This document shows positions 28,781 through 62,599 of a stretch of 64,000 nucleotides of DNA, piece by piece (within the stretch, counting starts at the first letter, position 1; each line of letters starts with the position of its first letter). The DNA comes from an uncultured bacterium (GTDB taxonomy: Bacteria > Oederibacteriota > PGYV01 > CAWJRG01). The position numbers and the translations under genes were made by a program. The DNA is taken from the NCBI GenBank assembly GCA_963845185.1, contig CAWJRG010000010.1:160001-224000 (forward strand). The letters run 5' to 3'. The notes beneath the pieces were generated by a model. That model had not been told where the DNA came from. It did not search any database and worked only from the letters and a program-made list of their open reading frames with translations.

Positions 28781-28826
28781 ATTTTTACTGCTCCTTTTAT
28801 AGTTCCATATTTTGCTCTTGCTACTA

Positions 28827-28860
28827 CCTCACCCTACCCTCTCACGTCGAGGGAGAGGGA
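28827..28860 (+). repeat. REP-like palindrome (CCCTCACCC-tailed GGGAGAGGG family), singlet
   Basis: CCTCACCCTACCCTCTCACGTCGAGGGAGAGGGA, 2 mismatches from the reverse complement of 54382-54415. Confidence 0.85.
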
Positions 28861-49427: not shown

Positions 49428-52400
49428 TCACTTCAATATTATCAGCTTATCCGCCTGTGACATTTGTGTTTTCCCGTTATTGTCTGTTATGATTACATAA
49501 TAATAAGTCCCGCTGCTTAAACCCTGAATCTGTGTCGCGTCGCACCTTACATAACCCTGCATGATAATCTGCTGCAATTGGGCTTCCTCAAAAACATACT
49601 GCTTCACCAGCCTGTAAGATACTGTATATATTTTTACAGTTACCCTGTCAATCCCCTGAGTAAAATTATAACTTATCGTTAAATACGGTATTTTCCCCGG
49701 ATTTATCGGATTCGGATACGGCTTAGGCTTTGTCTGCGGCGGTGTTGCAGTTGCAGTTAACGTAGCACTTACCACGGTCCACGTAGCACTCGCCGTAGCC
49801 GTGCTTGTTGCGCTTGGTATTTGCGGGGTCTGGCTGTTTGTAAAAGTTGCGGTCATTGCCGGGCTTAATGTCAACGTTGCCGTTATGGTCATTGTACCTG
49901 TTACGGTTAAACTGAAAGTCGGGGATAATGTATTTGTTGCCGTGCCTGTAAACGAAACAGTCACGGTTTGCGTGGGGCTTTCACTCATCGTCAATGTAGG
50001 TGAAGCCGTAAAACTCGGTGTCACCGAACTTGTGGCTGTTGCTGTAAGCGTGATTGTCAGCGTTGGCGTTATTGTCCAGGACAGGATTATATTTGTCGGA
50101 GACATGGTTATTGTATATGTCGGCGTGGCTGACACAATTGGTGTATCGGTTTCTGTTGTTGTGCCTGTTGCAGTCAGCGTGGGCGTCACGCTGTAAGTCA
50201 ATGTCACTGTCGCGGTATCTGAAGGAGTCGTTGTAAATGTCATTGAAGGAGAAGGCGTATAAGTCAGTGTCGCTGTGCTTGTAGCCGTAGCTGTCTGCGT
50301 GCAGCTGAAAGTGATTGTGCGTGTAGGTGTATTTGTTCCCGTTGCCGTAAATGTCGGCGTATTAGTCGCGGACAGTATTACAACAGTGAATGTCATTGTT
50401 ATTGTATAAGTTGGCGTTTGGCTTGCCGTCAAAGTCCATGTTGCCGTGGCTGTGGCAGTCGCGGACGGGCTCGCTGTAAACGTCGGCGTAACAGTCGCTG
50501 TATATGTCAATGTAATGCTGAAAGTCGGGGATGCTGAATTGGTTGCCGTGCCCGTAAATGTGGCAGTAGCTGTCTTCGTCGGGCTCGCGCTCGGCGTCCA
50601 CGTAGGAGTCGCCGTAGGCGTATCTGTAGTTGTTGCCGAAGGAGACCATGTCGGCGTATTTGTACCCGTGACAGTGAAGCTCGGCGTATTTGACCATGTT
50701 GGCGTGGCTGTCGGCGTAATTGTATGCGTGGGCGTTATTGTCCATGACAGGACTATATTCGTCGGAGTCATGGTTATTGTATATGTAGGCGTGGCTGACA
50801 CGATTGGCGTATAGGTTTCTGTTGTTGTGGCTGTTGCAGTCAGCGTGGGTGTCGCGCTGTAGGTCAATGTTGACGTCAAGGTCGGGCTTGCAGTCATTGT
50901 ATTTGTCCGCGTTATCGTGCTTGTCGGCGTCGGCGAGTATGAAGGCGTAGAAGTAACGGTGCAGGTAAAAGTCAGCGTTATTGTAAGTGTTTTTGTCCCT
51001 GTTGCTGTAACTGTCAAGCTTGGAGTCGCGCTCGGCGTGGCGCTGCTTGTCCCTGTCAGGGTCAATGTTGCGGTAGAGCTTACGCTTGGCGTCCATGTCG
51101 GTGTATTTGTCCTCGTAGCCGTAATTGTAGGCGTGGTCGTCCCGCTTATTGTCAGTGTTTGTGTCGCTGTAACTGTTGCGCTTGGCGTGGCGCTGCTTGT
51201 CCCTGTCAGGGTCAATGTTGCAGTAGGGCTTGCGCTTGGCGTCCACGTCGGCGTATTTGTCCTCGTAGCCGTAATTGTAGGCGTGATTGTCCCGCTTATC
51301 GTCAATGTCTGTGTCAGTGTCTGGGAATTTGTCGCTGACGGTGTAGCTGTCAGTGTCCATGTCAGTGTATTTGTCCTCGTTGCCGTAATTGTCGGCGTGG
51401 TCGTGCCGCTTATCGTTAGTGTTGGACTCGTCGTCTGCGAATTTGTCGCGGTAATTGTCTCCGAAGGAGTAGCCGTAGCCGAAGGCGAAGGAGACCTTGT
51501 CCCTGTCGCTGTTCCTGTCATGCTCGGTGTAGCAGTCATAGTAGGGCTGCTTGTCCTTGTCACAGTCGCAGTTTGTGTGTAGCTTGCTGTTAAAGTCCTT
51601 GTAGCTGTGTTTGTGATTGTCGGCGTATTTGTCGGTGTCGGCAGTAACGGCAATATCTGTATCGCGTTTATCAGGCCGTTATTCACTGACGCGGACCATG
51701 TCATTATAAGCTGCGCCGATGTGACGCTGGCCGTGAAAGTCACGTCAAACGCGTAATCCGAGCCTACTTTCGCGTAAATATCAAGGTTGTTTACTACTGT
51801 CACGCCCTGCGCAGTCACGCTGAAAATCCTCGAGCCCGACGATGTAAAATATGTCTCTGCGAACTTCAACGTAACCTGGTATGTGCCGTTTGGTATGTCA
51901 AATTCATAGGAAAAAGCTCCGTTCCTTTCGGTTTGGTATAAAGTCGGGTCAGTTGTTCCGCCTATTGCAATAGCTCCCCTGTTTGCCGTTGCGCCGGCTG
52001 TATATCCCCAGCCGCCCGTGGTATAAGCCTGGTCAGCGTTCCATGTATTTCCTGCAGCGTCAACATAAGCCGGCCCGCCGCAATTCACCCTTATGGCTGT
52101 GATTGCCGGGGTTGGTGTTATGGTAACGGTTGGCGTTATAGTCGGGCTTTGCGTCGCGCTTAAAACCGGCGATATTGTGCTTGTCAGCGTAATTGTACGG
52201 GATGGCGTGGCTGAAACAACCGGGGTTATTGTCGGCGAATATACAGATACCTTTGTCCGCGTGGCAGTAACCGTGCTTGTCATGGTATATGCAGGCAGGG
52301 CTCCGGTGAACCATATGTCGTCGAAATATATTGTTTTTGTACCGGGGTTGTCAAACTGGAACCCCACGCTCTGTATAGCCTTCAAATCAAATGTGTTATT

Positions 52401-54239
52401 GCCCATTACAGGGCTGTACTGGTCGCGCGTAAACGCGCTTAAATTTATTACTATATTCTGCCACCCTCCGGTGGTTGTTATCGGGTTTGGCCTGTCGGAC
52501 CATGTCTCGCCGTCAGCTCCGTTTGCCGTTGCTTCAACTATTTCTATGAAAAACGAAGTGCCAGCGGGCGCGTTTATCCAGAAACTAAGTGCGGTCGCGC
52601 CTGTATAATTCCTCCAGTCCTGCGGCCCCGAGTAAGGCGAGTCAATGTAAAACAATGACCAGCCCGTGCCTGTTGTGGATACCTGCATATCCCTTGCTCC
52701 GGCATGCGGCGTGACATTTGTGTTTGTCACTGCCACAGTCGAGCCTCCTCCGGGATTTGTTAGTGGGTTTCTTAGTGCCCCTGTCTCAAAGTCGTCGAAT
52801 ATACCTGGTGGGGGCGTATTTGTCGGTGTCGGCGACGGCCCGTATGTAACCGTACTTGTTACAGTTGGCGTTGGATAGTTTCCTAAAGGGTTTGGTTCGT
52901 TGCCGGAGAGTATGAGCAGGTACTGCATTTTTAAAATATCGCAGAAATAATCCGTACCCCAGTCAACTCCTGTTTCAGTCAACTGGCCCGAGCCTGTGCC
53001 CGCGTTCATGGTAACAAGTACATAATAGCAGTTATTGAGCCATGTCTGGTCTCCCTCGACCATGGCGGCAATCGCGACCGCTCCCTCCGGCCCCGGCAGG
53101 TTCATGGCGTCCTCGACCCCCAGGTCCGGAGTCCTGTCGCCCCGGTTATATGTCTTTGCCGTGCCGTCAAGCGTGTAATGTGAAAGTATTTGCGAGGCGT
53201 CGCCGTTGTATTTTGTCTGAAAAAAAGTCGAAACCCTTACGTTATTATCGTATGCAAGCTGGCCGTTTAGCGTGCCGTACAGCAGGTAATCGTAGCTTTG
53301 TCTCCACGCGTGGCGTATCGCATCCCACCACCATGTGCTGGGATCCATTGACCATGCGCCCGGGTTATTCGGGGTGCCGTCATAATTGCACCAGTTCGGC
53401 ATAAGCCCTGTGTTCATATTGAGCGCGGAATTAAGCGTGGAACTCATGCCGCCGCCGGCAAAATAATAGTTCACTATTGTCTGGTAAGTATGGGACGCTA
53501 CAGAATACCATGTAGTGGTGCCCGTGTAATCCCCGAACATCCTGTATTCGTACGGCGCGAAATACGATATATTGGCCGCATCCCAGCCGTCGCCCGGCCT
53601 GATGTCGTATGTGGCGTTGATTTCGTTCGAAAGTATCCTGCCTATAATGGCAGTTGCTTCAGTCTTGTAGTTAATCGCGCCCGCAGAGCCCCATTGCTTG
53701 TCTGCCGCCACAAGCGCAAAAGCTACGTCTTCATCCGCGTCTGTCGCTGAGCCGCCGCTTGTACAGTAAGGCTCCTGCCAGTTCATCAGCCCGTTTCCGT
53801 CTTCATGGTCCTTGTAGTATGTGTACAAACCGTCAAAATATGTTTCTGTATTGTTTGTAGCGGATGACATGAAAACCATTATCACCATGGCGTAACCTAT
53901 CCCCTCGCTGACAGTGTCGTTTTCCGCCGGAGCCGTGGCGAACCCGGAGCACCCGTTTGTAATGTAATTGCCCGTCTCGGTCCTTTGCAGGCGCCACTCG
54001 CTTCCCGTGCAGTTATTCTGCGTTACATATTTCGCCTTCCACAAATTAAACCAGTTCAGGCAGAACTGGTTCATCTGCGCGTTTGTATAATTATTCGGCT
54101 TTATGCCGTAAGGGTAGTTTGTGTTCTGCGGAAAAGGAAAATTGCATGTATCTGCATATGCAGCAGGAATCAGGGTTATCATGATAAATAACAATATGCT
54201 GTATCGTAAAACTTTTAATTTTGCAGGGCTAAACTTCAT
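49428..54239 (-). CDS. Secreted GH8 glycoside hydrolase + CBM11-like + malectin domain + very long Thr-rich tract + CTD
   Basis: TVSEGIGYAM, GLM.W and SATDADED.A.AL..A.KQW (GH8); FDDFE...LSFW...W..I.I.L..F...YFDD (CBM11-like); RVNCGG...D..G..W.AD...LYQTER...VTLKFAE...RIF (malectin). Confidence 0.9.
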   Translation of the reverse strand: MKFSPAKLKVLRYSILLFIMITLIPAAYADTCNFPFPQNTNYPYGIKPNNYTNAQMNQFCLNWFNLWKAKYVTQNNCTGSEWRLQRTETGNYITNGCSGFATAPAENDTVSEGIGYAMVIMVFMSSATNNTETYFDGLYTYYKDHEDGNGLMNWQEPYCTSGGSATDADEDVAFALVAADKQWGSAGAINYKTEATAIIGRILSNEINATYDIRPGDGWDAANISYFAPYEYRMFGDYTGTTTWYSVASHTYQTIVNYYFAGGGMSSTLNSALNMNTGLMPNWCNYDGTPNNPGAWSMDPSTWWWDAIRHAWRQSYDYLLYGTLNGQLAYDNNVRVSTFFQTKYNGDASQILSHYTLDGTAKTYNRGDRTPDLGVEDAMNLPGPEGAVAIAAMVEGDQTWLNNCYYVLVTMNAGTGSGQLTETGVDWGTDYFCDILKMQYLLILSGNEPNPLGNYPTPTVTSTVTYGPSPTPTNTPPPGIFDDFETGALRNPLTNPGGGSTVAVTNTNVTPHAGARDMQVSTTGTGWSLFYIDSPYSGPQDWRNYTGATALSFWINAPAGTSFFIEIVEATANGADGETWSDRPNPITTTGGWQNIVINLSAFTRDQYSPVMGNNTFDLKAIQSVGFQFDNPGTKTIYFDDIWFTGALPAYTMTSTVTATRTKVSVYSPTITPVVSATPSRTITLTSTISPVLSATQSPTITPTVTITPTPAITAIRVNCGGPAYVDAAGNTWNADQAYTTGGWGYTAGATANRGAIAIGGTTDPTLYQTERNGAFSYEFDIPNGTYQVTLKFAETYFTSSGSRIFSVTAQGVTVVNNLDIYAKVGSDYAFDVTFTASVTSAQLIMTWSASVNNGLINAIQILPLLPTPTNTPTITNTATRTLTASYTQTATVTRTSSPTMTATPSMTGTATGTRSPSPSATATPSETITATNSQTTSPTLTISGTTTPTITATRTNTLTWTLTATPSATNSQTLTQTLTISGTITPTITATRTNTPTWTPSASPTATLTLTGTSSATPSATVTATQTLTISGTTTPTITATRTNTPTWTPSVSSTATLTLTGTSSATPSATPSLTVTATGTKTLTITLTFTCTVTSTPSYSPTPTSTITRTNTMTASPTLTSTLTYSATPTLTATATTTETYTPIVSATPTYTITMTPTNIVLSWTITPTHTITPTATPTWSNTPSFTVTGTNTPTWSPSATTTDTPTATPTWTPSASPTKTATATFTGTATNSASPTFSITLTYTATVTPTFTASPSATATATATWTLTASQTPTYTITMTFTVVILSATNTPTFTATGTNTPTRTITFSCTQTATATSTATLTYTPSPSMTFTTTPSDTATVTLTYSVTPTLTATGTTTETDTPIVSATPTYTITMSPTNIILSWTITPTLTITLTATATSSVTPSFTASPTLTMSESPTQTVTVSFTGTATNTLSPTFSLTVTGTMTITATLTLSPAMTATFTNSQTPQIPSATSTATASATWTVVSATLTATATPPQTKPKPYPNPINPGKIPYLTISYNFTQGIDRVTVKIYTVSYRLVKQYVFEEAQLQQIIMQGYVRCDATQIQGLSSGTYYYVIITDNNGKTQMSQADKLIILK
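51033..51420. repeat. Intragenic tandem DNA repeats in the Thr tract
   Basis: GGCGTGGCGCTGCTTGTCCCTGTCAGGGTCAATGTTGC occurs twice and GTATTTGTCCTCGT(A/T)GCCGTAATTGT three times. Confidence 0.8.
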
Positions 54240-54381
54240 TTTTTTTTCCTTTAAATGAGTGTGTTAACCGGTTAAATCAGTAGTAATTATACCCTAATTT
54301 GCTGCAGATTTCAATATGATAGGTGTTTTCGGTGCTATATAAAAAAGTGTGTGATTTTAAATTATTATCTAAAAGGAATTT

Positions 54382-54475
54382 TCCCTCTCCCTTGACGGGA
54401 GAGGGTAGGGTGAGGGTGGAGATTTTATAGTTTCTCCGCCCCCTCACTCTGACTCTCTCCCGCAAGGGGAGAGAG
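54382..54475. repeat. Inverted doublet of REP-like palindromes (REPIN-like)
   Basis: TCCCTCTCCCTTGACGGGAGAGGGTAGGGTGAGGG, a short spacer, then CCCTCACTCTGACTCTCTCCCGCAAGGGGAGAGAG. Bracketed by GTGTGTGATTTTAA / TTAAAATTACACAC. Confidence 0.85.
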
Positions 54476-54583
54476 ATTATTTGTTTTTAAAATTACACAC
54501 AAATACAGCAATTACGATGTTTTTCCAGCCCTTTTTAGTCCTTCCACTCCCCCCTTACCCCTTACCACTTCCCCCTGTTATTC

Positions 54584-55372
54584 CTATCTCGCCCGTTTCA
54601 GCAATGTCTTCAGCAAATGGATTTTTCCCATGCCAAGCTTTTCCATTACTTTTACTTCGGTCATGAAAACGTACATGGATGAAATTACATGGTAAGCAAA
54701 CCCCTGCCAGCCGTCCAGGAACCCGAGCTTGAAAATATAGTGTTTTAAAAAATAAAGCTTCGGCTTTATCAGCGCCGAATAGCCTGTCGGGAAATAGCCC
54801 TTTTCAAAAAGCCTTTTTGCCTCAAGCTCAGTGTATTTGTTTATGAACTCTATATGCTCGTGGATGCTGTCTTTCGTATAGTGGATTACAGGGTTTTTCA
54901 GGATTCCAGTATCGCCTTTTACGTTCACGCACTCGTGCACTTCTGTTTCGTCATATTTCCCTGCCTGCTTTTTGAAAAGCCTGAGCTGGTGGTCAGGGTA
55001 TATCCCTCCGAAACGCAGCCACCTGCCGTAATACATGTTTTTCCTGGCAATAAAAAACCCGTTCTTGCCATCGCCTGATTCCGGGATTTTTTTTATCTCG
55101 TCTGCCAGTTCATCGGTCATTATTTCGTCAGCGTCAAGGCTCAAAACCCATTCATTTTTGGCTTTCGCTATGCCGAAATTCTTCTGCCTGGCGTAGGTGT
55201 CCCATTCCCTGGAAAATACCTTTGCGCCGTATTGCTTTGCTATTTTTATGGTATCGTCCGTGCTGCCGCTGTCTATGACGATAATCTCGTCCAGCCATTG
55301 CAGGCAGTAAAGGCACCTTGCAATTATTTTTTCCTCGTCTTTTGTTATTATGACCGCCGATATTTTTTGCAT
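54584..55372 (-). CDS. Glycosyltransferase family 2 (WaaE/KdtX-like)
   Basis: ISAVII..DEE, DSGSTD.T, WVLSLDADE, YPD..LRLF, VHE and GFLDG..G motifs. Confidence 0.9.
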   Translation of the reverse strand: MQKISAVIITKDEEKIIARCLYCLQWLDEIIVIDSGSTDDTIKIAKQYGAKVFSREWDTYARQKNFGIAKAKNEWVLSLDADEIMTDELADEIKKIPESGDGKNGFFIARKNMYYGRWLRFGGIYPDHQLRLFKKQAGKYDETEVHECVNVKGDTGILKNPVIHYTKDSIHEHIEFINKYTELEAKRLFEKGYFPTGYSALIKPKLYFLKHYIFKLGFLDGWQGFAYHVISSMYVFMTEVKVMEKLGMGKIHLLKTLLKRAR

Positions 55373-55381
55373 ATTGCTCCT

Positions 55382-55771
55382 TCAAACTTTTATCACTTTA
55401 CTACCCTCTCCCTCTTTGGGCGGGAGAGGGCCGGGGTGAGGGTTTATATTTTGCCTTATAACCTCAAGAACTCCTTCTATGTTTCCAAGAACATCATTAT
55501 TCCAGAATCTGAGTACCTTGAATTTTTGTTCTTTCAAATATTTATCTCTTATTTTATCTTTTTTTCTATTTATAGAATGTTGCCCGCCGTCAAGTTCAAT
55601 TATTAATCCTTTTTCAAAACAAATAAAATCGACTATATATTTATCAATGGGCTGTTGCCTTTTGAATTTTATTCCAAAAAATCTTTTGCCCCGTAATTGC
55701 AACCACAGCGCTTTTTCAGTATTTGTTTGATTTTTTCTTAAATTTCTTGCTAGTGTTACAATTTTTTTCAT
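55382..55771 (-). CDS. DUF559 (Vsr-like, PD-(D/E)xK) endonuclease domain protein flanked by REP-like repeats
   Basis: ARNLRKNQT..E..LW..LR, KFKRQQPI..YIVDF.C, IELDGGQH, RD.YL and VLRFWN motifs. The C-terminal PHPGPLP is translated REP sequence. Confidence 0.9.
   Translation of the reverse strand: MKKIVTLARNLRKNQTNTEKALWLQLRGKRFFGIKFKRQQPIDKYIVDFICFEKGLIIELDGGQHSINRKKDKIRDKYLKEQKFKVLRFWNNDVLGNIEGVLEVIRQNINPHPGPLPPKEGEGSKVIKV
55404..55442 (-). repeat. REP-like palindrome overlapping the 3' end of DUF559
   Basis: CCCTCTCCC...GGGAGAGGGCCGGGGTGAGGG. Confidence 0.85.
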
Positions 55772-55781
55772 AAGTTACTTG

Positions 55782-55886
55782 CCCCACCCTCTCTCTGGCT
55801 TTCCCCCGTCAAGGGGGAGAGAATTCTTTATATTTGTTTTCATACTTCCCTCTCCTTCTTTTTGCGGGTGAGGGCCAAGGTGAGGG
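55782..55886. repeat. Two degenerate REP-like palindromes upstream of DUF559
   Basis: CCCCACCCTC...TTCCCCCGTCAAGGGGGAGAG and TCCCTCTCC...GGGTGAGGGCCAAGGTGAGGG. Confidence 0.75.
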
Positions 55887-55887
55887 T

Positions 55888-58482
55888 TTACTTATTCCTG
55901 AGCACGATGAAACTGCCTATTTTCCTGTGCACGACGTTATTCATATCCGTTGCCTCTATGACGTAATAATAAGTCCCGCTCGCCAGGGTTGTTGTCGCAG
56001 ATAAAACATCAGTGCCTGCCTGCGTGTGGATGTCCGGCTCGGCGTAAGTAACCTTGAAAATCAGCCTGTAAGACTGCGTGAACGCCTTTATCGTCACCTG
56101 CTCGGCATTCGCGGTCAGGTTGTAGCTGATGTTTATCACGCTGCCGTTGCTCGGGTTTGGATAAACTTTGTTGTTGGTTATCTGGAACGTTGTAGGCGTC
56201 GGCGTCCATAATGCCGCCGTGGCTGTCACTGTGGGCTGCAAGGTATTTGTAATGGTAAAAGTCGGCGTGACCGTGTAAGTCGCGGTTAACGACGGTGTAA
56301 TTGTCACTGTCGCGCTGTTTGTCAGGGTAGGTGTTATTGTAAGCGTCGCTGTAATCGTGTAGGTCGCGGTTATTGAAGAAGAAGGCGTTATTGTCGGGGT
56401 ATTTGTTTGGGTAAACATAATTGTCATTGTTGATGTCGGCGTAACAGATGGCGTAGGTGTCGGCCTTATATGCTGGCAAATATCCAGCCCGCCTGTGCCG
56501 TCAGCGACATAAATAGTCTGCCCGTCGCTTGTGTAAACCCCGTACGCTGTGCCCGGCAGGGCTAAAGTTGCCGCCGGCACAGTAAGAGGCGAAGCTAAAT
56601 AATATGGATCGCTCGCGTCAAAAACAGAAAGTCCTGACGTATCGCACGCAACATACGCGTAATTTGTGTTATAAATTACGCCCCTTGCAGGCCCATTTGT
56701 TGCAGCCAGGCCGTAATACCCCTGCATTGTGGTTCCGGAAACATCCGCAACCCCCAGTCCCTGTATCGCATTCGTACCTGGATATTCAGCCAGATACGCT
56801 ATATTGTTATTTACATTTACGTTATATACTGAACCATCGCCATAAGCTGAAGTTATAATATTTGTAGCCAGTGCGGGTGCTGCCGGGTTGCTTACGTCAA
56901 TAATATCCAGTCCTCCGGCACCATCCGCAATGTAAGCATAATTGCCTATAGCATTGACTTTCCGCATTACACCGCCGTCGTTTGGATACATGTTCGGCTG
57001 CAATATGGCCGCAAGCGGGTTTGTGACATCAAAAATTTCCATGCCTCCCATTGCGGCGTCATAAGCATCAACCACATATACGTAGTTGCCCTGTTTGTCA
57101 ACCCCCTGGGCAGCATCGGGCACGGCATATCCTGTGACATACGCCGGCATATAAGGATTACTCACATCCGCCACAACCAGCCCGCCTGACCCGTTGGCAA
57201 TATATGCATAATTATTTGCGGTATCAAGATATAAATCATACGCGCCCGGCATCGCGCCTGACGGCAAATCAAGGCTGCCCGCAAATAAAGGGTCAGCCGG
57301 ATTAGTTACGTCAAGCACCAATAAACCAATTGGACCGCCGGCTATGTACGCGTAATTGCCTGATTCTTTGACAGACAGCGCTGTCGTGGGATCGTATAAA
57401 TCAAAATACGAACCATCAAATACAGGCGAGTTTAAAGTTGATACGTCAATTTCCCCTACTCCTGTATAATTCTCGGATACATAAACCGTATTGTTGTTTT
57501 TCACGCAGGCGCTTGCAAGGCCGTCTGTTGGGCATGATGTAACTGAAGCCGGTAAATGGGGATTTAATGATATATCCATTATTTCCACGCCGTTGGCATC
57601 TTCGGATAAATATAAATCATTGCCGTAATTTTTCAAATCATAAACAGGCCCTAAAGCGGGAACTGATGCTATATATTCAGGCGTAGAAGCCTTCGAAACA
57701 TCAACAACTTCAACCTGGCCCTGCGCATAATTGTTTAATTCCCCGAGATAAGCCAGGTTATTTACAACGGTTATGCAGCTGATATAAAAAGTATTATCAT
57801 TCGGATAATACAGTCCTGTGTGTGTCGTAGCTGCATTCGGCGGGGATACATTGATAATCTGCATTGCTGTTTCATCGGACAAATACGCGTAATTATTGCC
57901 GTCCGAAGCGTTCCCGCTCACATATACGGCTGCCGAATAAAGCGTGGTAGGCACATCCGCCACTTCATTCGGTGCTGTCGTTGGCAGAGTTGAAATATCC
58001 GCTATTATTAAACCGGCGCTGTTGCAAGCAAGATACATATAATTTCCCGAAACAAAAATTCTATCCACATATGTCGACTGACCTGTTGTAAGGTTTATTG
58101 GGGTAAAAGTAGTTACATAGCTTACAGAAGTGGGATTGCTTATATTGTATATTTCAACTGCGTTATTATAATAGTCGGAAACATATAAATAATTCCCGCT
58201 CGCGCACAAATCATAAACAAAATCGCTGTTATTAAGAGAAAAATTATCAACAACCCTGTTCTGTCTGGCATCATTATTGGTATCAACCACAAATATTCCG
58301 TTGCCGGCTGCTGTATATAAATATCCATTCGAATCTAAGTCGCAGCTGAGATTGGGAAGTGCCTGCGATGACCCCTGGATATAATTTGTTATGTCCCATA
58401 TCCCCAGCAAATTCAGTGTATCGGCCTTAATTAAAAAACAAAAAGAAAAAATTAAAATTCCCGAAAGAATAATTTTTTTCAT
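55888..58482 (-). CDS. Secreted LVIVD-repeat protein + Thr tract + CTD
   Basis: Repeats GNYAY.A.G..GL.(I/V).DVS.P..P and the CTD KVYPNP...ASGTYYYVI...KIGSFIVLR. Confidence 0.9.
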   Translation of the reverse strand: MKKIILSGILIFSFCFLIKADTLNLLGIWDITNYIQGSSQALPNLSCDLDSNGYLYTAAGNGIFVVDTNNDARQNRVVDNFSLNNSDFVYDLCASGNYLYVSDYYNNAVEIYNISNPTSVSYVTTFTPINLTTGQSTYVDRIFVSGNYMYLACNSAGLIIADISTLPTTAPNEVADVPTTLYSAAVYVSGNASDGNNYAYLSDETAMQIINVSPPNAATTHTGLYYPNDNTFYISCITVVNNLAYLGELNNYAQGQVEVVDVSKASTPEYIASVPALGPVYDLKNYGNDLYLSEDANGVEIMDISLNPHLPASVTSCPTDGLASACVKNNNTVYVSENYTGVGEIDVSTLNSPVFDGSYFDLYDPTTALSVKESGNYAYIAGGPIGLLVLDVTNPADPLFAGSLDLPSGAMPGAYDLYLDTANNYAYIANGSGGLVVADVSNPYMPAYVTGYAVPDAAQGVDKQGNYVYVVDAYDAAMGGMEIFDVTNPLAAILQPNMYPNDGGVMRKVNAIGNYAYIADGAGGLDIIDVSNPAAPALATNIITSAYGDGSVYNVNVNNNIAYLAEYPGTNAIQGLGVADVSGTTMQGYYGLAATNGPARGVIYNTNYAYVACDTSGLSVFDASDPYYLASPLTVPAATLALPGTAYGVYTSDGQTIYVADGTGGLDICQHIRPTPTPSVTPTSTMTIMFTQTNTPTITPSSSITATYTITATLTITPTLTNSATVTITPSLTATYTVTPTFTITNTLQPTVTATAALWTPTPTTFQITNNKVYPNPSNGSVINISYNLTANAEQVTIKAFTQSYRLIFKVTYAEPDIHTQAGTDVLSATTTLASGTYYYVIEATDMNNVVHRKIGSFIVLRNK

Positions 58483-58516
58483 AATCAGCCTCTTTTCTTT
58501 AATTTGATATATATAA

Positions 58517-58545
58517 AGTATAAATTAAAACCTGTGCAATGTCAA
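58517..58545 (-). promoter_or_regulatory. Sigma70 promoter for the LVIVD gene
   Basis: TTGACA-17 nt-TATACT on the minus strand. Confidence 0.7.
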
Positions 58546-58550
58546 TAAAA

Positions 58551-58831
58551 CTGCAATATTTGGTTGTGTACACTATTGTGTGTAATTTCAAAACCAAACA
58601 GACTCTCGCCCCTTGTTGAGTTAAATAGTCTGGTAGACTATTTAACGGGTAGAAGTCATTTATAATTTAAAATATGCTTTTCTACCCAAGAGTAAGAGAG
58701 AGGGGGCGGAGGAAATATAGGAATTATCACCCTCACCCTGACCCTCTCCCGTCAAGGGAGAGGGGTTTCTCTTTCTAATTATAATAGAATTGAAATTACA
58801 CACTAATAACGACAGTATCGCAATATTTCAG
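58551..58831. repeat. Nested repeat cluster: outer GTGTGTAATTTCA inverted repeats, a REP doublet and a 68-bp double-hairpin insert (58620-58687)
   Basis: GTGTGTAATTTCA (58578-58590) pairs with TGAAATTACACAC (58791-58803). Intact REP at 58730-58764. The left REP is interrupted by GTTAAATAGTCT-GGT-AGACTATTTAAC + GGGTAGA...TCTACCC. Confidence 0.75.
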
Positions 58832-58842
58832 GATTTTTCATT

Positions 58843-58870
58843 GTAGAGACACGCCATGGCGTGTCTCTAC
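58843..58870. repeat. GTAG-tagged REP palindrome
   Basis: Perfect 28-bp palindrome GTAGAGACACGCCATGGCGTGTCTCTAC. Confidence 0.8.
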
Positions 58871-58939
58871 TTCATTTTGTTGAATATTAGACAACGAAAA
58901 CGGTTAAAAGTTGCGTAATCCCCCTTACTTATAAAAATC

Positions 58940-58970
58940 AAAAACCCGCAGCTAAAACGAGCTGCGGGTT
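58940..58970 (-). terminator. Rho-independent terminator
   Basis: AACCCGCAGCT-AAAACG-AGCTGCGGGTT followed by a T-run on the minus strand. Confidence 0.75.
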
Positions 58971-58999
58971 ATGGCCTTTACCCTCTTTCCTCTCCTGAG

Positions 59000-61900
59000 T
59001 TATCTCAATATTATAATTGTATCCGGCTCGGAAATTTCCGTTTTGCCGTTGTTATCCGTTAAAATCACATAATAATATGTCCCGTCGCTTAAGTCGTTAA
59101 GCTCTCCCGGTTCAAAGTTCAAATAGCCCTGTGTTATTATCTGCTGCATTTGGGCTCCGTCGAAAACAAATTGTTTCACCAGCCTGAAAGATACTGTATA
59201 TATTTTTACAGTCACCCTGTCAGTTCCCTGGGTAAAATAATAAAGGATTGTCAATCCCGGCCATTTGCCCGGATTTACAGGATTGGGATACGGCCTCGGC
59301 TTTTTATGAGGCGGCGCGGGAGTCGCGGTTGGCGTAACCTGCTGGATATTAAGCGTTGGTGTGCTGGTCGCGCCTGCAATTTGCTGAGTCTGGCTGGCTG
59401 TCGGCGTGATAGTCACTGTCAGGCTCGGGGTCAATGTCATGGTCGCCGTGTATGTATATGTCGGTGTAACTGTAAATGTACTTGTCGAACTTGGGCATAT
59501 ATGATTTACGTTTATTGTATTCGAGTTAACTGTAACCCCCGCATATGAAATGCTTGCCGTATTCGGCCATGTCATGCACCAGTATTGGGAACTCAGGTAA
59601 TAATTCTCGACTGTATATGTAAAATCCTGGCAGGAGTTTGCCGCAAAACCACTTGGCCATGTCAGAGAAAAATTAAAACTGCCGTTTGATTCATTTGGCC
59701 CCATGCTTCCGTTGGATACGCCATATGGCCCTGAAAACTGGTCGTCAGCTGTACTATTCCACGAGTCTGTCAGTAAAACCTGGTTGACTGTATATCCGCC
59801 TGTGTTGCATATATGCAGGGCAAAAGTTATTATATTTGCCGCGTTTATATCCGTCATATCTGCGCTGCCCACTACAGTTTTATTTATTGTAAAAATCGGC
59901 GGCATCGACTGGGTAGTTGTCATTGTAGGCGTTTCAGTCGGCGTCGTTGAAGCTGTGCACCCGCAGGGTACTGTAGGAGTTATTGTATATGTCGGCGTAA
60001 CAGTCGGTGTATTTGTTAATGTTGATCCCGGCGGTACCTGGGTGAATGTCACAGTCGGTGTCGAGCACGCATCCTGCATAATGACCGTGGATACAGGCGA
60101 AGCAGCCTGCCCCGGGTAAATCAGCGAAGCGTTGTTGTTCCAGTTGCACGTGTTAATATGCTGGTTGTTTGTCAGCCACATCTGCCATGTATAGCATCCC
60201 ATAAATCCCCCGGGCGTAGGCACTATTGACACCGTGCTAATGCCATTGTTTGTGTTAACATTTATTGTTGATATTCCATTTGCGTTTATGTTTGTATTAT
60301 TATTCCAGTTAAACTGCCAGCCGTCTGCATTATCGCTCGACCAGTCGTCAATAATGGTAAAATTCTGTGTAGCTCCGCCGCTGTTGTTGCAGAACACAAG
60401 GTTGAATGTAACAATATCATTGGTAGTATTTATTATCGTTTTGCTGGATGTTTTGGATATTGTAAATGCCGGCGTTGTTGTCGGCGTCACTGTCGGCGAT
60501 ATGCAAATTATATTGAATACTGTTTGATTTGAAAATTCAGGTACAATATTTGTCGCGCCTATGCCGCCGACATTTGTAAAACTCTCGGCGCACGCTGACG
60601 TGGACGCCCACCATGTGTATGAGCCGCTTTGGTCGCTTATGTTGCCGAGTTGCCAGCTTACCGGGCTTGTTCCGCTCGCGCCAGGGCTTGACCCCTGATA
60701 TGTCAGGCCTGTCGGTACCGTGTCGTACAACACCGCGTTTGCCGCTACCCTCGGTACTAATATCATAAAATTATTATATGAGTCCTGTACCGTGCCATTG
60801 CCATCGCCAGACTGGTTACCTACTCCGGGCCTCCAATCAGTATATGTGCCTGTGCCTGAGCAGTTAAAGTTCGCGTTTGACGCTGCTCCTGTATCTGTCC
60901 ATGAAACCTGGTACCCTGCCGGCTCAGGCTGCCCGATTTGCCATACTTTTGCATTAAATATATAATCAGTTCCGTTTGTTGTCATATATGTCTTTGTCCT
61001 GTACCATGTATTTCCGGTTATTGTTTGCGAGCTTGAAGCTCCTCCATATATGCAGGCCATACCTCCTCCGCATCTCTGTATGGCCAAATATCCGTCCGAA
61101 GGTGCTGTATCCATTGATAAAATCAGACTGTAACCGTAATTATTAGCGCCTGTCTGTCCATTGTCCCTTAAAATCACCAGGCCGTCTGCTCCGGGATATG
61201 TGCCAGGGTTTATGAAAACATCTGCTTCAACAATGCCAGTGCATATCTGCACATTTGAAGGCGTAGGGTCATCAAGCAAAAGCGCCGGGTATGACGATGA
61301 CTGGCCAGCCCCAGTCAATATCCTGTCTCCTGAATTGCACGGGTCTGATATTGTCCATGTCCCATTGTCGGTATTATAAGGCATTAATTTCCACCCTGAC
61401 GGAGGCGTGGTTGAAGAAGTCCCTGTCGCTGTGTCGTCAAATGCCCTGTATACCTTGAGCTGGTCGCCGTTTACCTGGTAATTGAGATAATATGTTATCA
61501 TAACCGAAGAGCTTGGCAGTTTCATGAATGTGCTCACGCTCTCCAGTTTTTGCACTGATATTGCCGCCTGCCCAACTATCAAAGTTGCTGATGCGCTCGC
61601 GTTGGTACTACCGCTTGTCCCTGTTGCAGTGTTCGGTATTGACGTGCCTGACGCCATTGCCGTTGTCATCATCATCAATATCCATACTGTCCCTGACTTC
61701 ATATATGTCGATGTTGGAAACGTCCATGTTACTGTGCCTGTTGTGGCTCCTGCCACAGGTGCGCTCACGCTTCCACTGTTTATTGAGCTTGGCCCGACTG
61801 ATACCAGGGCAAGGCTTCCGCCTCCGGGCAGGGCATCCGTAATTGTAAGCGGCCCGTTGCCGTATGTGTAGTCTATTGAAAATAATACCAGGTCACCTAC

Positions 61901-62599
61901 GTTCTGCAATACTCCCTCTGCCCTTTTATCCAGTGTAATTGAATTTGCGGGCGGCGTTGGCAGCGGCCAGCCTAATACCAGCCCGGAACCGTTTGGACTG
62001 CATGCGCCGTTTGTTAAAGCAACCCAGTTGCTTCCTCCAAAATATGAACTATCTGCGCCTATGAGCAGATTAAGGTTAGTCGCGCCGCATGCTGTCCCCA
62101 TCTGCTGTGCGCCCGGCATTGTCAGGGTATATGTTTCTGTAACCAACATTCCACTACCCGCGCCGCCGCAGTCATTGCAGTTCTGGACAAACGGTGACGG
62201 CATTGGCAAATTATAGCCAAAATTCATGCCACTGTTCGCGTTATTTGGGTTTGCGTCGGGAATATTTATACCGTCGCTGCTTATTAAGAATACCTGGCCT
62301 CCTGTATTGGGAGGCTGGAAAGCACTGCTCGTGCTCGCAGCAACAAGCAGTTCATTAGGGATAGAATACTCATCTATACACATATTAATATTTAAAATAA
62401 ATTGCTGTTCCCAACCCGGGTTTGAAGGTATTATATTTGCTGAAATTATTTGCGGGGAGTTTGCGTAAACCAAACTGCCTGATAATAAAAATGACAATAT
62501 GACAAGGCAAAAACTGAAGGCTTTTATTTTTTGAGGCTTTTTATTTGCGGTCGTTTTCAAGTTTCGCCGTCTCCTTTGATGTTTCCTGCCCTTATACAT
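59000..62599 (-). CDS. Large Cys-rich secreted protein with DUF11-like Ig repeats, Thr tracts and CTD
   Basis: Signal peptide (possible TTG start at 62560 after AGGAG); repeats I.K......D.(V/I)TF.L...N.G......D.W; PYPNPVNP...GTYYYVIL CTD. Confidence 0.8.
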   Translation of the reverse strand: MYKGRKHQRRRRNLKTTANKKPQKIKAFSFCLVILSFLLSGSLVYANSPQIISANIIPSNPGWEQQFILNINMCIDEYSIPNELLVAASTSSAFQPPNTGGQVFLISSDGINIPDANPNNANSGMNFGYNLPMPSPFVQNCNDCGGAGSGMLVTETYTLTMPGAQQMGTACGATNLNLLIGADSSYFGGSNWVALTNGACSPNGSGLVLGWPLPTPPANSITLDKRAEGVLQNVGDLVLFSIDYTYGNGPLTITDALPGGGSLALVSVGPSSINSGSVSAPVAGATTGTVTWTFPTSTYMKSGTVWILMMMTTAMASGTSIPNTATGTSGSTNASASATLIVGQAAISVQKLESVSTFMKLPSSSVMITYYLNYQVNGDQLKVYRAFDDTATGTSSTTPPSGWKLMPYNTDNGTWTISDPCNSGDRILTGAGQSSSYPALLLDDPTPSNVQICTGIVEADVFINPGTYPGADGLVILRDNGQTGANNYGYSLILSMDTAPSDGYLAIQRCGGGMACIYGGASSSQTITGNTWYRTKTYMTTNGTDYIFNAKVWQIGQPEPAGYQVSWTDTGAASNANFNCSGTGTYTDWRPGVGNQSGDGNGTVQDSYNNFMILVPRVAANAVLYDTVPTGLTYQGSSPGASGTSPVSWQLGNISDQSGSYTWWASTSACAESFTNVGGIGATNIVPEFSNQTVFNIICISPTVTPTTTPAFTISKTSSKTIINTTNDIVTFNLVFCNNSGGATQNFTIIDDWSSDNADGWQFNWNNNTNINANGISTINVNTNNGISTVSIVPTPGGFMGCYTWQMWLTNNQHINTCNWNNNASLIYPGQAASPVSTVIMQDACSTPTVTFTQVPPGSTLTNTPTVTPTYTITPTVPCGCTASTTPTETPTMTTTQSMPPIFTINKTVVGSADMTDINAANIITFALHICNTGGYTVNQVLLTDSWNSTADDQFSGPYGVSNGSMGPNESNGSFNFSLTWPSGFAANSCQDFTYTVENYYLSSQYWCMTWPNTASISYAGVTVNSNTINVNHICPSSTSTFTVTPTYTYTATMTLTPSLTVTITPTASQTQQIAGATSTPTLNIQQVTPTATPAPPHKKPRPYPNPVNPGKWPGLTILYYFTQGTDRVTVKIYTVSFRLVKQFVFDGAQMQQIITQGYLNFEPGELNDLSDGTYYYVILTDNNGKTEISEPDTIIILR

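Follow-up and report, generated by a model that had tools for sequence, protein, structure and literature searches.

DUF559 nuclease genes bracketed by BoxC/PIT/TM repeats, and a possible partnership resembling RAYT/REPIN systems

When a small nuclease gene lies between inverted copies of a palindromic repeat, does the nuclease act on the repeats, or are the repeats there for the gene? This question is raised by a 64,000-nucleotide stretch of DNA from an uncultured bacterium (GenBank assembly GCA_963845185.1, contig CAWJRG010000010.1, positions 160,001 to 224,000; hereafter, the window), in which a gene of the DUF559 family (55382-55771, minus strand) is enclosed by two repeat units whose tails face inward. 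A preliminary description of the window had compared this arrangement with that of repetitive extragenic palindromic (REP) sequences, their doublets forming hairpins (REPINs), and the REP-associated tyrosine transposases (RAYTs). We found that the bracketing recurs in the same geometry in many phyla, that the catalytic residues of the nuclease are conserved, that the cassette also lies in frame inside other genes, and that it is present or absent among orthologues of one such gene. On these grounds we lean, with modest confidence, towards the reading that YcjD-type DUF559 is the dedicated endonuclease of the BoxC/PIT/TM repeats, in a RAYT/REPIN-like relationship, and that it would be spread by break-induced copying.

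The nuclease gene and its bracketing repeats

The open reading frame (ORF) at 55382-55771 encodes a protein of 129 amino acids, in which DUF559, a Vsr-like PD-(D/E)xK family, is the sole Pfam family (PF04480; E=1.7e-40; 137.7 bits, with a cut-off of 20.6; residues 3-109). The best NCBIfam match was PRK09767, the YcjD family (E=7.8e-32, below the cut-off of that model), and PDB entry 3HRL is a solved relative (E=2.7e-33). Residues D48, E59, D61, and H65 are invariant across 25 aligned members, and the window protein, as a DUF559 member with conserved catalytic acidic and histidine residues, is predicted to be an endonuclease. The core of the gene has a G+C content of 28.4%, compared with 44-45% in the neighboring genes, i.e., its base composition is foreign. 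The picture drawn in the preliminary description, of an AT-rich DUF559 gene among inverted, tailed palindromes with inward tails, was thus confirmed.

In each repeat unit, a pyrimidine arm of 9 nt (CCCTCTCCC) is followed by a short loop, the complementary purine arm GGGAGAGGG, a few bases, and a second purine block GGGTGAGGG. Read in the orientation of the gene, the cassette consists of a hairpin with a G-rich tail, the ORF, and a C-rich tail with a hairpin. The downstream end (55404-55442, plus strand) is a consensus match that folds into a hairpin, CCCTCTCCC-loop-GGGAGAGGG, with the tail GGTGAGGG. It overlaps the 3' end of the ORF, and ~20 C-terminal residues of the protein (NPHPGPLPPKEGEG...) are encoded by it, as had been noted. 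The upstream end (55782-55821, minus strand), a hairpin with a G-rich tail ending 10 nt ahead of the ATG, was recognized by sequence reading and by the general hairpin detector described below (contig positions 215799-215821). Of the two bracketing units named in the preliminary description, the first matches the relaxed consensus; the second is degenerate, with one mismatched arm and a weak fold (z=-0.7).

The preliminary description had regarded these palindromes as a REP-like family belonging to the gene. The family is real, but its units have a published counterpart. In the accessible text of Holder et al. (2015; PMC4666352), the TM consensus is given as CCCTCNCCC-N3-6-GGGNGAGGG-N3-GGGNGAGGG, with BoxC and PIT as earlier names. 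By that consensus, 6 strict and 66 relaxed sites were found in this genome, 6 of the relaxed ones in the window; a 21-nt pattern of the repeat matched the window 4 times against 0.06 expected, a number that none of 100 shuffled sequences reached. Judged by consensus, the window repeats are assigned to the known BoxC/PIT/TM intrastrand-triplex motif and do not make up a new family. Their hairpin folding was computed, and triplex formation is predicted from the consensus.

The same text of PMC4666352, which cites earlier work of Bachellier and of Hoyne and Maher, describes TM repeats in E. coli and in over 260 further genomes, five inverted pairs of type A and type B units in strain MG1655, formation of a stable purine-motif triplex by TM units in vitro, and commoner rearrangement at TM loci among E. 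coli strains. The three-block unit and the inverted pairing of two unit types are common to those elements and the ones studied here. Whereas the E. coli units are described there as always intergenic, those in the present material bracket a nuclease gene and also occur inside coding genes, and their arm sequences differ by lineage (CCCTCTCCC, CCCCTCCC, CCTTCCCC). As far as it is accessible, PMC4666352 reports no TM-associated enzyme and no mobility function, and the word "endonuclease" is absent from it. Within the open-access literature (subscription journals and supplements were outside the scope), no link of DUF559, YcjD, or COG2852 to BoxC, TM, or REP repeats was found, and the link between DUF559 and BoxC/TM appears to be new.

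Association of DUF559 with the repeats within and across genomes

The genome that contains the window is 3.5 Mb in size and 99.4% complete. By using a general detector (an 8-nt arm of C and T only, a loop of 3-12 nt, at most 1 mismatch), we identified 133 hairpins in it; the contig of the window carried 49, compared with 1 in a Markov-simulated copy of that contig. Each of its two DUF559 genes has C/G-tract hairpins no more than ~60 bp away on either side, an arrangement seen in only 6.5e-5 of 200,000 random 390-bp intervals. The two proteins share 57% identity and thus represent separate lineages.

A cross-phylum set was assembled from the 25-homologue alignment as the best 80 related loci, with one genome per species and at least 13 phyla. 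Of 79 loci, 70 had a hairpin in the 150 bp upstream; 73 of 77 had one in the 150 bp downstream, and 64 of 76 had one on each side. The rate expected per flank is ~2%, as computed from sequence over 1 kb distant, in which 94 hairpins occurred in 1.012 Mb. The strict order of hairpin and G-tail, gene, and C-tail and hairpin was found in 36 of 80 loci and the reverse order in 2 of 80; the downstream C-tail and hairpin alone occurred in 65 of 80. The geometry of the cassette is fixed across phyla, and its two ends, being reverse complements over ~38 bp, form terminal inverted repeats. These loci are the best subfamily matches, and they were confirmed with the window protein as query, including its own repeat-coded tail, which could favor loci with a downstream repeat, although not with an upstream one. 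A second set, chosen by the Pfam model alone, is free of this bias, and hairpins were found at 18 of its 20 DUF559 loci in relatives. The ORF usually reads through its downstream unit: repeat-coded C-terminal peptides of the PSP...GEG or PPL...GG kind end 104 of the best 120 near-length homologues, which are 55-65% identical and come from many phyla. As the preliminary description had anticipated, DUF559 genes are flanked by the repeats far beyond chance.

Association with a second enzyme class was evaluated in 41 relatives, with the hairpin excess per genome taken as the count above that of a reversed-pattern control. The median excess was 25 in the 20 DUF559-positive relatives and 1 in the 21 DUF559-negative ones (Mann-Whitney p=6e-5, for relatives that are not independent of one another). 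A different explanation of the bracket would be that the repeats are ordinary REPs moved by a transposase, be it a Y1 enzyme of the RAYT/IS200 type or one of another class, with DUF559 as a passenger. Y1_Tnp genes (PF01797) do occur in 27 of the 41 relatives, and median hairpin counts were 8 with and 2.5 without them (p=0.07). However, Y1 presence barely raised the counts among DUF559-negative relatives (medians 0 and 1), none of 20 Y1 loci in hairpin-rich relatives, which served as the control gene class, had a hairpin within 600 bp or anywhere in 1.5 kb, and this 99.4%-complete genome, with its 133 hairpins, contained no Y1_Tnp match. In addition, the accessible text of PMC4666352 states that remnants of transposases or integrases were never found near TM sites. 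We regard the passenger explanation as very improbable; the repeat follows DUF559 and not a RAYT/IS200 gene, in keeping with the expectation of the preliminary description.

DUF559 was present at 1-2 copies in five further genomes. In one genome (G103, to which locus L072 belongs), two copies with identical scores lie ~780 bp apart (C6:78090-78416 and 78873-79199), pointing to a recent duplication of the cassette in tandem. A DUF559 tree built from 114 columns had 7 well-supported branches among 78; phyla were partly mixed on it, with 20 phylum changes compared with a minimum of 12 and a shuffled mean of 27. With respect to transfer between phyla, the tree may be called suggestive only.

The repeats also occur as pairs without the gene. 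The hairpins of this genome fall into 89 clusters, ~22 of which resemble miniature inverted-repeat transposable elements (MITEs): doublets of 120-185 bp with tails inward, ends of ~45 bp, and spacers of 76-139 bp that are conserved in their own right (e.g., C9:497990-498175, C6:134116-134302, and C10:841094-841275 of this genome, G000). The gene-less inverted doublets of the preliminary description are thus a recurrent form. Their origin as recent deletion derivatives of the DUF559 gene was considered and dropped, because tblastn and blastn found no DUF559 remnants in the gene-less doublets or elsewhere in the genome. The ~22 doublets carry two differing hairpin types at their ends (arms CCTCTCCC and CCTTCCCCC), their tails run into an inverted repeat GAAGCAGC / GCTGCT, and they often abut another small stem-loop (ccaccaac...gttggtgg).

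Two gene-less doublets lie in the window. The first, downstream of a family-2 glycosyltransferase (GT2) gene, consists of a left unit at 54383-54416 (plus strand; hairpin and G-tail) and a right unit at 54441-54475 (minus strand; C-tail and hairpin on the plus strand), both consensus matches, with inward tails and hairpins 46 bp apart. It folds into two hairpins and a central stem formed by both tails (z=-6.8), and is embedded in a longer repeated unit; shorter doublets of this type recur in the genome with conserved outer flanks. The gene-less geometry noticed earlier at 54382-54475 is therefore real, as part of this longer unit. For the second doublet, placed earlier at 58602-58764, the right half is intact (58730-58764, minus strand; C-tail and hairpin on the plus strand; consensus match and fold). 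Its partner, a C/G-tract hairpin at 58602-58716 to which no strand was given, was recognized by sequence reading and fold (z=-4.7), and its loop is interrupted by a nested insert of ~85 bp with two palindromes. One palindrome of this insert (58613-58700) is built on a AAATAGTC...GACTATTT core, and a similar core recurs in a hairpin cluster at G000:C10:695052-695174; the insert may belong to a second family of small repeats, nesting in the loops of TM units. Two further copies, reported before at 55847-55886 and 28827-28860, were recovered as relaxed consensus matches: an additional unit between the cassette and the LVIVD-repeat gene (55848-55886, plus strand) and a solitary unit (28826-28859, minus strand).

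Cassettes inside coding genes and at rearranged loci

The preliminary description missed how common in-frame cassettes are within housekeeping genes. In a search for longer proteins, 703 of 827 candidates contained DUF559; in the 120 listed, the domain was internal in 48 (more than 60 amino acids on each side), N-terminal in 65, and C-terminal in 7, and 7 of the 120 had two copies. Internal domains are flanked on both sides by repeat-coded peptides of the GEG type. The hosts among those listed include Ile-, Val-, and Thr-tRNA ligases, Mfd, PriA, RecO, RecJ, RimM, HsdR, HsdS, LipB, and M14 peptidases. Cases with the domain at the N-terminus (e.g., many heme b synthases) could reflect merged gene calls or read-through; stop codons are lacking in the unit, immediately after which comes the start of the host itself. 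On the DNA of named genomes, insertions were confirmed in Mfd and two class-I tRNA ligases of Rickettsiales, in PriA of a Gastranaerophilales genome, and in three HsdS genes.

These insertions bear on the alternative that the repeats are cis-acting parts of the gene's expression unit, such as an insulator, a transcript-stabilizing hairpin, or a translational control of a potentially toxic nuclease, with gene-less copies left by unrelated host processes or gene loss, so that the nuclease would not act on them. The G-rich tail that ends 10-25 nt before the start codon, in the manner of a ribosome-binding site, the read-through of the downstream unit by the ORF, and the low gene copy number with no sign of gene bursts are what such a role would lead one to expect. 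A role in expression is impossible, however, for units that flank the domain inside other genes, and it does not account for tens to hundreds of gene-less units per one or two genes, or for MITE-like doublets with their own conserved spacers and no DUF559 remnants. Moreover, according to PMC4666352, in the text accessible to us, Hoyne and Maher saw neither promoter nor terminator activity in the elements. We consider this explanation unlikely.

The second DUF559 copy of this genome is itself such an insertion. It lies in frame in a 1210-amino-acid type I restriction R-subunit (hsdR) gene, between the nuclease domain and helicase motif I, with translated units on both sides. The Pfam families of this protein are HSDR_N, DUF559, SWI2_SNF2, ResIII, T1R_D3, and T1RH_C; the same Pfam scan found no Hint family in it, and hence the insert is not an intein. 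Among orthologues, the insert is present in this genome (G000), G014 (84% identical), G022 (51-57%), and G001. In G010 (74-78%) it is missing, with three codons in its stead; it is missing as well from G071, G059, G076, G030, G026, and a paralogue in G000. How similar the hosts are therefore does not predict which of them carry the insert. The inserts of G000 and G014 are 80% and their host proteins 85-86% identical; between G000 and G022, the inserts are 69% and the hosts 51-56% identical; the latter values, a single comparison, would fit a later transfer into the same hsdR site.

Three side observations concern these restriction loci. Downstream of the hsdR insert of G022 (C203; loci L108 and L124), four tandem TM units are translated as a PLS-W/L-E-R/K-TGE peptide; TM units can multiply in tandem inside a coding gene. 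The paralogue without an insert in G000 (C9:535190-538243) contains an in-frame TAA and may be a pseudogene. Between hsdS and the insert-bearing hsdR of G000 (locus L101 on C7, 587-2998), an 804-amino-acid ORF with weak matches to AAA/NACHT-type ATPases and to the HsdR N-terminal domain may be an accessory defense gene of the restriction locus.

The pattern at hsdR also bears on a third alternative, namely that DUF559 is a domesticated host repair enzyme that clears replication-stalling triplexes or hairpins at TM repeats to the benefit of the cell, and that the gene sits among repeats only through joint arrival. The Vsr-like fold and catalytic motif accord with this, as does the single-copy state, which is also that of domesticated RAYTs. 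PIT elements block DNA polymerase in vitro (cited in the accessible text of PMC4666352), and VsrA, a DUF559 protein from Caulobacter, is interpreted as an enzyme of very-short-patch repair in the part of PMC12907096 available to us. A repair role nevertheless leaves unexplained the fixed bracket with tails inward, the in-frame insertion into unrelated essential genes, the presence and absence at one hsdR site, and the foreign base composition, and we hold it to be quite unlikely.

Rearranged surroundings were seen both in E. coli and in the window. E. coli K-12 has ycjD together with 23 BoxC copies. At its stop codon, the gene (b1289) enters a degenerate unit; ~170 bp downstream follows a full TM unit, and between the two is a duplicated piece of the ycjD 3' end (locus L132, NC_000913.3, 5040-5840). 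According to the accessible portion of PMC12817139, ycjD sits in the sapF-fabI gap at precisely the position taken by the eefRABCD efflux operon in other phylogroups of E. coli; with the adjoining TM unit, this makes the site a TM-marked replacement locus. In the window, the DUF559 gene is neighbored by the GT2 gene (54584-55372) and the LVIVD-repeat gene (55888-58482). In five relatives (L154-L158), GT2 orthologues (56-60% identical) have other neighbors on both sides and no DUF559, lying between a ~380-amino-acid glycosyltransferase-like gene and a convergent ~470-amino-acid gene; thus, the cassette is not ancestral at this position. Within 54382-55886, both GT2 neighbors are replaced and TM units stand at both GT2 borders, which look like repeat-marked rearrangement breakpoints. 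The comparison between the GT2 and LVIVD genes that the preliminary description had proposed therefore showed that the cassette is not ancestral, but it yielded no exact empty-site junction.

Beyond the cassette, three very large, Thr/Pro-rich, secreted-looking proteins are encoded by the window's minus strand (49428-54239, 55888-58482, and 59000-62599). They share similar C-terminal segments of ~80 amino acids (...PYPNP.NPG...YYYVI...), probably a common sorting or anchoring domain. A PADLOC analysis gave only a weak match to DpdF (19 bits), which was not used.

A possible mechanism and its relation to known elements

The RAYT/REPIN-like layout, the invariant catalytic residues, and the existence of a Vsr-like homing relative together lead us to read DUF559 as the endonuclease of the repeats. 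In the mechanism that we propose, the two inverted units with inward tails would enclose the gene as its terminal inverted repeats, ~38 bp in length, and the pyrimidine arm, purine arm, and purine tail of each unit could form a hairpin and an intrastrand triplex. Copies of the unit without the gene, as singlets and doublets, number tens to hundreds per genome, with DUF559 kept at 1-2 copies, as is a RAYT among its REPINs. The nuclease would recognize a TM unit or doublet, by its structure or its sequence, and nick or cut there; recombinational repair between dispersed TM copies would then carry repeats, and sometimes the gene, into new TM-bearing sites, in a homing-like manner. Since all frames of the repeat are free of stop codons, in-frame cassettes in tolerant gene loops could survive as domain insertions.

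Several points, in addition to the query bias of the 80-locus set, the lack of DUF559 remnants in doublets, and the repair function ascribed to VsrA, weigh against this reading. Low copy number and differing copies within a genome give no sign of recent gene bursts. In three relatives, many hairpins occur in the absence of a DUF559 match (G029 with 73, G021 with 33, and G013 with 21), and two have DUF559 and almost no such hairpins (G008 and G025); some of these five genomes are incomplete or use other arm types. At the hsdR junctions, no target-site duplication was seen, and the tails of the hsdR insertions point outward, unlike those of the canonical cassette. We know of no strand-transfer chemistry for a 110-amino-acid PD-(D/E)xK domain, so that any mobility would have to borrow host repair. 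Finally, the action of DUF559 on the repeats is deduced from genomic association.

Compared with RAYT/REPIN systems, the layout agrees: a single-copy gene lies between palindromic repeats of its own, and many gene-less inverted doublets lie elsewhere. The enzyme, in contrast, is a Vsr-like PD-(D/E)xK nuclease and not an HUH Y1 tyrosine transposase, and the repeat is a tailed unit of the triplex type and not a REP. REPIN-RAYT systems are described in paper abstracts as mostly vertically inherited, whereas the present cassette also occurs in frame inside genes and phyla are partly intermixed on the DUF559 tree. The analogy suggested in the preliminary description is thus partly supported, by the flanking excess, the doublets, and the presence and absence at hsdR, in a form that differs in both enzyme and repeat.

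A second comparison is with homing endonucleases. The accessible text of PMC3239194 indicates that Vsr-like nucleases can be homing enzymes, as exemplified by I-Bth0305I, which has been grouped with DUF559 (PMC3424549) and is the nearest characterized mobile relative of the family. As far as that text goes, the EDxHD homing enzymes share with DUF559 a Vsr-like catalytic fold with E, D, H, and D residues. Both look selfish, with hosts that are often genes of DNA metabolism; at hsdR, presence or absence at a single site in a conserved gene did not depend on the phylogeny of the hosts. Neither carriage by an intron or intein nor a free-standing position beside a unique target was found. No carrier is apparent, since the hsdR host lacks Hint and an Rfam scan of window positions 54000-59000 gave no intron and nothing else above threshold, only hairpin-like microRNA matches far below it. 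Furthermore, the 129-amino-acid protein has no NUMOD or other DNA-binding domain, its insert would remain in the host protein, and its flanks are a dispersed repeat, not the halves of a unique target.

The cassette with its doublets also resembles an insertion sequence with its MITEs, in that terminal inverted repeats of ~38-45 bp occur on the gene-bearing unit and on shorter gene-less versions. It differs in having no transposase of a known class and no visible target-site duplication at hsdR, and in that the short versions have only their ends in common with the gene-bearing unit. Rickettsia palindromic elements, another parallel, insert in frame in protein-coding genes and carry no gene. 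As with these elements, stop-free palindromic repeats are tolerated here in essential genes, several of which are Rickettsiales genes; the difference is that the repeats here bracket a whole nuclease domain.

On a broader reading, BoxC/PIT/TM units would be both the termini and the non-autonomous progeny of minimal selfish elements of a new class. The sole protein of such an element would be a Vsr-like nuclease of ~110 amino acids that recognizes DNA structure (triplex or hairpin) and not a long sequence; the element would spread by break-induced copying among copies of the repeat, and its stop-free ends would allow it to colonize essential genes in frame with neither intron nor intein. We offer this broader reading tentatively, and with rather more doubt than assurance.

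BoxC/PIT/TM repeats have been unexplained since the 1990s, although they occur in hundreds of bacterial genomes, keep a conserved sequence in distant bacteria, and mark rearrangement hot spots in E. coli. Cassettes that fuse reading frames and break assemblies distort the gene calls of many "fusion" proteins in databases. The near-constant bracketing, from ycjD of E. coli to uncultured phyla, makes DUF559 a candidate for the missing enzyme function of these repeats. If the nuclease acts on them, this would be a second partnership of an enzyme with a repeat family, unrelated to RAYT/REPIN, and would provide a route by which a nuclease gene may live in essential genes, such as those for tRNA ligases, Mfd, PriA, and HsdR, without splicing.

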